Origin: Escherichia coli
GTDB taxonomy: Bacteria; Pseudomonadota; Gammaproteobacteria; Enterobacterales; Enterobacteriaceae
Reading direction: 5' to 3' (one strand)
Assembly (NCBI RefSeq): GCF_003334355.1
Contig: NZ_QOWP01000105.1
Length of the DNA stretch: 611 bases
Shown here: positions 1-611 of the stretch, one piece after another
Layout of the letters: every line of letters starts with the position of its first letter
Numbering within the stretch: position 1 is the stretch's first letter
Notes under the pieces: model-generated
Database searches by the model: none
Told to the model about the DNA's origin: nothing
The model's input: the letters and a program-made list of their open reading frames with translations, nothing else
Position numbers and translations under genes: made by a program

Positions 1-465
1 TTTGTCATGCAGCTCCACCGATTTTGAGAACGACAGCGACTTCCGTCCCAGCCGTGCCAGGTGCTGCCTCAGATTCAGGTTATGCCGCTCAATTCGCTGC
101 GTATATCGCTTGCTGATTACGTGCAGCTTTCCCTTCAGGCGGGATTCATACAGCGGCCAGCCATCCGTCATCCATATCACCACGTCAAAGGGTGACAGCA
201 GGCTCATAAGACGCCCCAGCGTCGCCATAGTGCGTTCACCGAATACGTGCGCAACAACCGTCTTCCGGAGCCTGTCATACGCGTAAAACAGCCAGCGCTG
301 GCGCGATTTAGCCCCGACATAGCCCCACTGTTCGTCCATTTCCGCGCAGACGATGACGTCACTGCCCGGCTGTATGCGCGAGGTTACCGACTGCGGCCTG
401 AGTTTTTTAAGTGACGTAAAATCGTGTTGAGGCCAATGCCCATAATGCGGGCGGTTGCCCGGCAT
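1..465 (-). CDS. insB: InsB, catalytic part of the IS1 transposase, expressed as the InsAB' fusion; 3'-partial (about 12 codons plus stop lie beyond position 1); frame is -1 relative to insA
   Basis: My own translation from the ATG at 465..463 down to position 1 gives 155 sense codons with no stop: [155 protein letters not shown]. This matches IS1 InsB as I recall it. It is absent from the supplied ORF track, presumably because there is no in-window stop codon. Confidence 0.9.
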
Positions 466-611
466 CCAACGCCATTCATGGCCATATCAATGATTTTCTG
501 GTGCGTACCGGGTTGAGAAGCGGTGTAAGTGAACTGCAGTTGCCATGTTTTACGGCAGTGAGAGCAGAGATAGCGCTGATGTCCGGCAGTGCTTTTGCCG
601 TTACGCACCAC
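384..611 (-). CDS. insA: InsA, IS1 transposition repressor / N-terminal DNA-binding part of the transposase; 5'-partial (N-terminal ~16 codons lie beyond position 611); TAA stop at 384..386
   Basis: Minus-strand translation gives [75 protein letters not shown], matching the C-terminal 75 residues of IS1 InsA (91 aa) as I recall it. The 'M' in the ORF track is the internal GTG (Val) codon at 609..611, not a true start. The CSHC zinc-finger half (555..566) and the helix-turn-helix-like segment (roughly 408..494) are present. Confidence 0.92.
402..408 (-). promoter_or_regulatory. Programmed -1 ribosomal frameshift slippery heptamer A-AAA-AAC (A6C), joining insA to insB to make the InsAB' transposase
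   Basis: The minus strand reads ...CAC TTA AAA AAC TCA GGC... in the insA frame (H L K N S G). A -1 slip on A6C gives AAA AAA CTC AGG CCG (K K L R P), which is exactly the insB-frame peptide [10 protein letters not shown]. The insA stop TAA (384..386) lies 15 nt downstream of the heptamer. The IS1 A6C frameshift is established in the literature. Confidence 0.88.

Follow-up and report, generated by a model that had tools for sequence, protein, structure and literature searches.

The 611-nucleotide stretch of Escherichia coli DNA analysed here (the window) is the middle of an ordinary, already well-known IS1A-type insertion sequence on the minus strand, and nothing in it is novel. The reverse complement of the window matched nucleotides 104–714 of the 768-bp element exactly in nine public full-length copies; window positions are converted as 715 minus the IS1 coordinate, with window 611 corresponding to IS1 104 and window 1 to IS1 714. 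We put the probability at about 0.88 that the window is the reverse-strand reading of nucleotides 104–714 of a standard IS1A-type insertion sequence and that its source was most likely a 768-bp element, full length and potentially active. The conceptually frameshifted product scored 235.2 bits against the NCBIfam IS1 transposase equivalog NF033558 (cutoff 100), and the Pfam domains PF03811, PF12759 and PF03400 were all significant. Furthermore, the two-frame organization of the IS1 family was present, with insA in phase 0 and insB' in phase −1 meeting at an A6C junction, and the G+C content was 51–61% along the length of the window. The mapping to 104–714, the NF033558 score, the three Pfam domains and the 99.3% DNA identity to K-12 IS1A thus bear out the original prediction that the window is an internal IS1 fragment.

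The features located in the window are collected in Table 1. IS1 has been described as a 768-bp element with imperfect terminal inverted repeats and a weak promoter overlapping the left repeat (IRL), which encodes the repressor InsA and, through a −1 frameshift at the A6C site, the transposase InsAB' (PMC12428005). Within the window, insA, the A6C site and the insB' frame are all uninterrupted. The first 16 codons of insA and the promoter in IRL fall outside the window, as do the final 12 codons of the insB' frame together with its stop codon, the only part of that frame that does; InsAB' rebuilt from the full-length copies is 232 aa long and ends in ...VELHDK followed by VIGHYLNIKHYQ. InsA, most of which is encoded in the window, is a repressor with zinc-ribbon and helix-turn-helix domains that binds the element ends, and a rare −1 ribosomal frameshift at A6C produces the InsAB' DDE transposase, most of whose catalytic frame is likewise present. 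The RNA starting at the A6C site (93 nt) was predicted to fold no more stably than shuffled sequences (z = −0.35), and this model, which is blind to pseudoknots, offers nothing in favour of a nested stimulatory hairpin after the slippery motif.

Table 1 Features of the 611-nt window (window coordinates).
Feature	Position	Strand	Evidence
Internal IS1 segment	1..611	-	Exact at offset 103 from IRL in nine 768-bp copies
insA codons 17-91 and TAA stop	384..611	-	ORF list; translation VVRNGKST...NSGRSR, then stop (384-386); K-12 insA1 annotation agrees
InsA zinc-ribbon, C-terminal part	552..611	-	PF03811 (Zn_ribbon_InsA), model 16-35 of 35, E 4e-9; NCBIfam NF050000
InsA/InsAB' helix-turn-helix DNA-binding domain (predicted)	403..533	-	PF12759 HTH_Tnp_IS1, E 3e-28, fragment residues 27-70
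A6C (AAAAAAC) slippery motif	402..408	-	TTAAAAAAC at window 402-410; role per PMC12428005
insB (insB'), the -1 frame with respect to insA, open as far as the window edge	1..465	-	Frame translation; K-12 insB1 coordinates
IS1 transposase DDE catalytic domain, cut by window edge	1..357	-	PF03400 DDE_Tnp_IS1, E 2.5e-70, model 1-119 of 131
Base setting the window apart from the commonest IS1A-family variant	437		+ strand T, i.e. A at IS1 278; InsA/InsAB' V75 to I

We then searched the window itself for element ends, repeats and structured RNAs. A degenerate IRL/IRR pattern allowing up to 3 mismatches gave 0 matches on either strand of the window, no direct repeats were found in it, and Rfam returned no match to it at E ≤ 1. 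The single inverted pair in the window (13 nt, 499–511 and 598–610, 92% complementary, 86 nt apart) lies within insA and is probably a chance occurrence. With no terminal repeats inside and the whole window being internal IS1, the earlier claim that ends, target-site duplication and neighbouring genes lie outside it holds. The distances, however, are far shorter than the 1 kb on each side that had been proposed: the element would end 103 nt to the right of window 611 (IRL side) and 54 nt to the left of window 1 (IRR side), and it is beyond these edges that the terminal inverted repeats, the IRL promoter, an 8–9-bp duplication and the neighbouring genes would be expected.

Comparison with named elements placed the window close to the IS1A consensus. 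K-12 IS1A/IS1E (the IS1 "consensus", 768 bp) is collinear with the window over all 611 bases and identical at 607 (99.3%), with the same insA/insB' layout, A6C frameshift site and domain set; the four substitutions (IS1 127, 262, 278 and 444) produce two changes in InsAB', V75I and S130R. The commonest IS1A-family variant of Enterobacteriaceae plasmids (e.g. p1-H9, NZ_CP029181.1) is closer still, at 610 of 611 bases: it shares 127T, 262C and 444G (R130) with the window and differs only at IS1 278 (G>A in the window, position 437), where the window encodes V75I in the helix-turn-helix domain. This variant was the top match class both in E. coli genomes and, among the matches listed, in PLSDB. 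In contrast, IS1F of E. coli, which has the same family, length and organization, is only ~91% identical over the full element (71 differences), and the window is not IS1F-like. IS1 activity can drop sharply when an element departs from the K-12 consensus at only a few positions (PMC12428005).

IS1-like sequences are abundant and the exact window sequence is rare. Of 5426 complete E. coli genomes, 4970 contained IS1-like matches (median 11 places per genome), and at least 5000 PLSDB plasmid records, mostly conjugative among the matches listed, did so as well. The exact 611-mer, by comparison, was found in only nine records among the 5426 complete genomes, all of them chromosomes; Shigella chromosomes fall outside every collection searched. 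No 100% match to the window occurred among the PLSDB matches listed, the best being 99.8%. A phage origin of the window was considered and rejected, the best phage match reaching 99.3%, to P1. Neither IMG/VR nor the JGI metagenome contigs nor the GTDB representative genomes contained a match to an exact 190-nt pattern that spans three diagnostic SNPs. At the protein level, the exact 91-residue InsA V75I form was listed in 161 blocks of a large assembly collection, a wider spread than that of the 611-mer. A truncated InsA V75I fragment was found on 3 contigs, all of which differ from the window at IS1 262, and the 155-aa InsB form expected from truncation at 611 nt was not on record.

The nine copies with the identical 611-mer revealed how varied the surroundings of this interior can be. 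All are 768 bp long, carry an identical IRL (GGTGATGCTGCCAACTTACTGAT) and IRR, and occupy 7 distinct sites. Perfect 9-bp duplications flank the element at four of these (grxA, the dacD-sbcB spacer, a DUF1889 gene and adeQ), within the 8 or 9 bp reported for IS1 (PMC12428005); the other three (hsdS in three strains, a lyase gene, and the junction of a tRNA-Asn integrase with shiA) have no duplication. The anatomy anticipated earlier, 23-bp inverted repeats and an 8–9-bp duplication, is therefore seen in public full-length copies that contain the same 611-mer. At the hsdS site, a truncated hsdS adjoins a phytase-like gene with identical junctions in three ETEC strains, the junctions of L001 recurring in L009 and L011. 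The absence of a duplication is what IS1-mediated adjacent deletion, or recombination between copies, would be expected to leave, and the same interior fits simple insertions and rearranged copies alike. Since the identical interior sits at unrelated sites, insertion context cannot be inferred from the window; the original prediction that an internal fragment leaves context unreadable is confirmed by the same 611-mer at 7 different sites.

Several neighbourhoods merit separate description. In L001, a true IS1F (1–768) lies 3.1 kb upstream of the exact-match IS1 (3898–4665) in the same orientation, with ariR-like and phytase-like genes between them; this pair could be an IS1-bounded segment or the trace of an old IS1-mediated deletion. 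A metagenome contig (L013:1–665) starts exactly at IS1 104, and 111 bp separate the right end of its IS1 from amn downstream. In L010 (2398–3165), shiA stands between IS1 and amn, a different junction from that of L013 in the same neighbourhood. E. coli P276M, which holds an intact exact-match copy, also carries a decayed IS1 (L056:1501–2262) with a mosaic left end and internal deletions or rearrangement, annotated as frameshifted with an internal stop and located between an integrase fragment and ydeT.

The V75I change was followed beyond the nine exact copies. In CP151548.1, IS1 copies with V75I occupy five further sites, four of them with 8–9-bp target duplications, which suggests that the V75I lineage moves and would fit an active one. 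A stronger proposal is that the V75I allele marks a distinct, actively transposing IS1 sub-lineage that has spread among certain E. coli chromosomes, those of several ETEC and commensal strains, and exchanges segments with IS1F; another is that the window's own copy sits at a site with a real phenotypic consequence. We regard both proposals as unlikely.

We weighed other origins for the window against a full-length source element. Judged from the public copies, a full-length element is the more likely source, a reading of intactness tempered by the unseen ends of the window's own copy and by the IS1 pseudogenes and partial copies of related genomes. It is these same two points, the unseen ends and the degraded relatives (the frameshifted L056 copy with its internal stop and a partial copy in L024), that would speak for a truncated or decayed remnant, immobile and lacking one or both ends. 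Such an origin is nevertheless very improbable, considering that the window is collinear with intact IS1 throughout its 611 bases, that both frames are open with the frameshift site intact, and that each of the nine public copies sharing its exact sequence is full length and has both inverted repeats. It is also unlikely that the window belongs to one arm of an IS1 composite transposon or to a resistance or virulence plasmid (Tn9-like). The frequency of IS1 on plasmids (at least 5000 PLSDB records, mostly conjugative among the matches listed) and the IS1F lying 3.1 kb upstream of the exact-match copy of L001 in the same orientation are consistent with such an arrangement, but the best PLSDB match was 99.8% with none at 100% among the matches listed, no phage record exceeded 99.3%, and all nine exact matches are chromosomal.

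A further reading concerns the edges of the window and is compatible with, not opposed to, the full-length element: the window may be a whole short contig in which a short-read assembly collapsed several IS1 copies into one repeat, cut where the copies differ. We consider this plausible, though less likely than not. The source length is exactly 611, and the edge at IS1 104 lies one base past a 9-SNP IS1F-like patch (IS1 64–103) that five of the nine exact-match copies carry and four lack. In the mosaic copies (L001:3898–4665, L006, L009, L010 and L011), IS1 64–103 is identical to IS1F and the rest is IS1A-like; the tract looks like a gene-conversion patch. At most 152 E. coli records have this mosaic left end at ≥99% identity. 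Strains P276M and EC21Z-063 each contain both left-end types, and a short-read assembly graph of such strains would branch exactly at the patch edge. Against this, a unitig of this kind would be split in EC21Z-063, whose second copy has a further difference at IS1 262, and no contig of 611 nt with the window sequence turned up in the collections searched. Other public contigs likewise begin at IS1 102–104, but the control for the left end is confounded by gene callers that start insA at an internal GTG, and nearby start positions are also common.

At the opposite edge, public short-read contigs entering IS1 from the left flank (L025–L034, L036–L037) end at IS1 713–716 ~5 times more often than at two nearby control codons; for ends at IS1 714–716, 49 blocks were listed, compared with 10–11 contigs for the two control codons. 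This ~5-fold enrichment is spread over IS1 713–716 and is not specific to 714, and the neighbouring codon 711–713 is equally enriched for contig ends, partly from a real stop-codon variant. No variant (non-G) base was found at IS1 715 in GTDB representative genomes, and no sequence variant accounting for the contig ends at 713–716 was found. If the window is indeed such a collapsed repeat, it has no single insertion context, and extending it would need long reads or read pairs.

The importance of the window in itself is very low, as it is the standard interior of one of the best-studied mobile elements. What it illustrates is a point of method: an internal fragment of an insertion sequence cannot be placed in a genome, and identical copies sit at many sites. 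Questions of gene disruption, promoter effects, deletions and composite transposons consequently need junction reads or long reads from the original sample. The useful output is the exact mapping of the fragment, the single base that distinguishes it, and the demonstration of identical IS1 copies in unrelated contexts.
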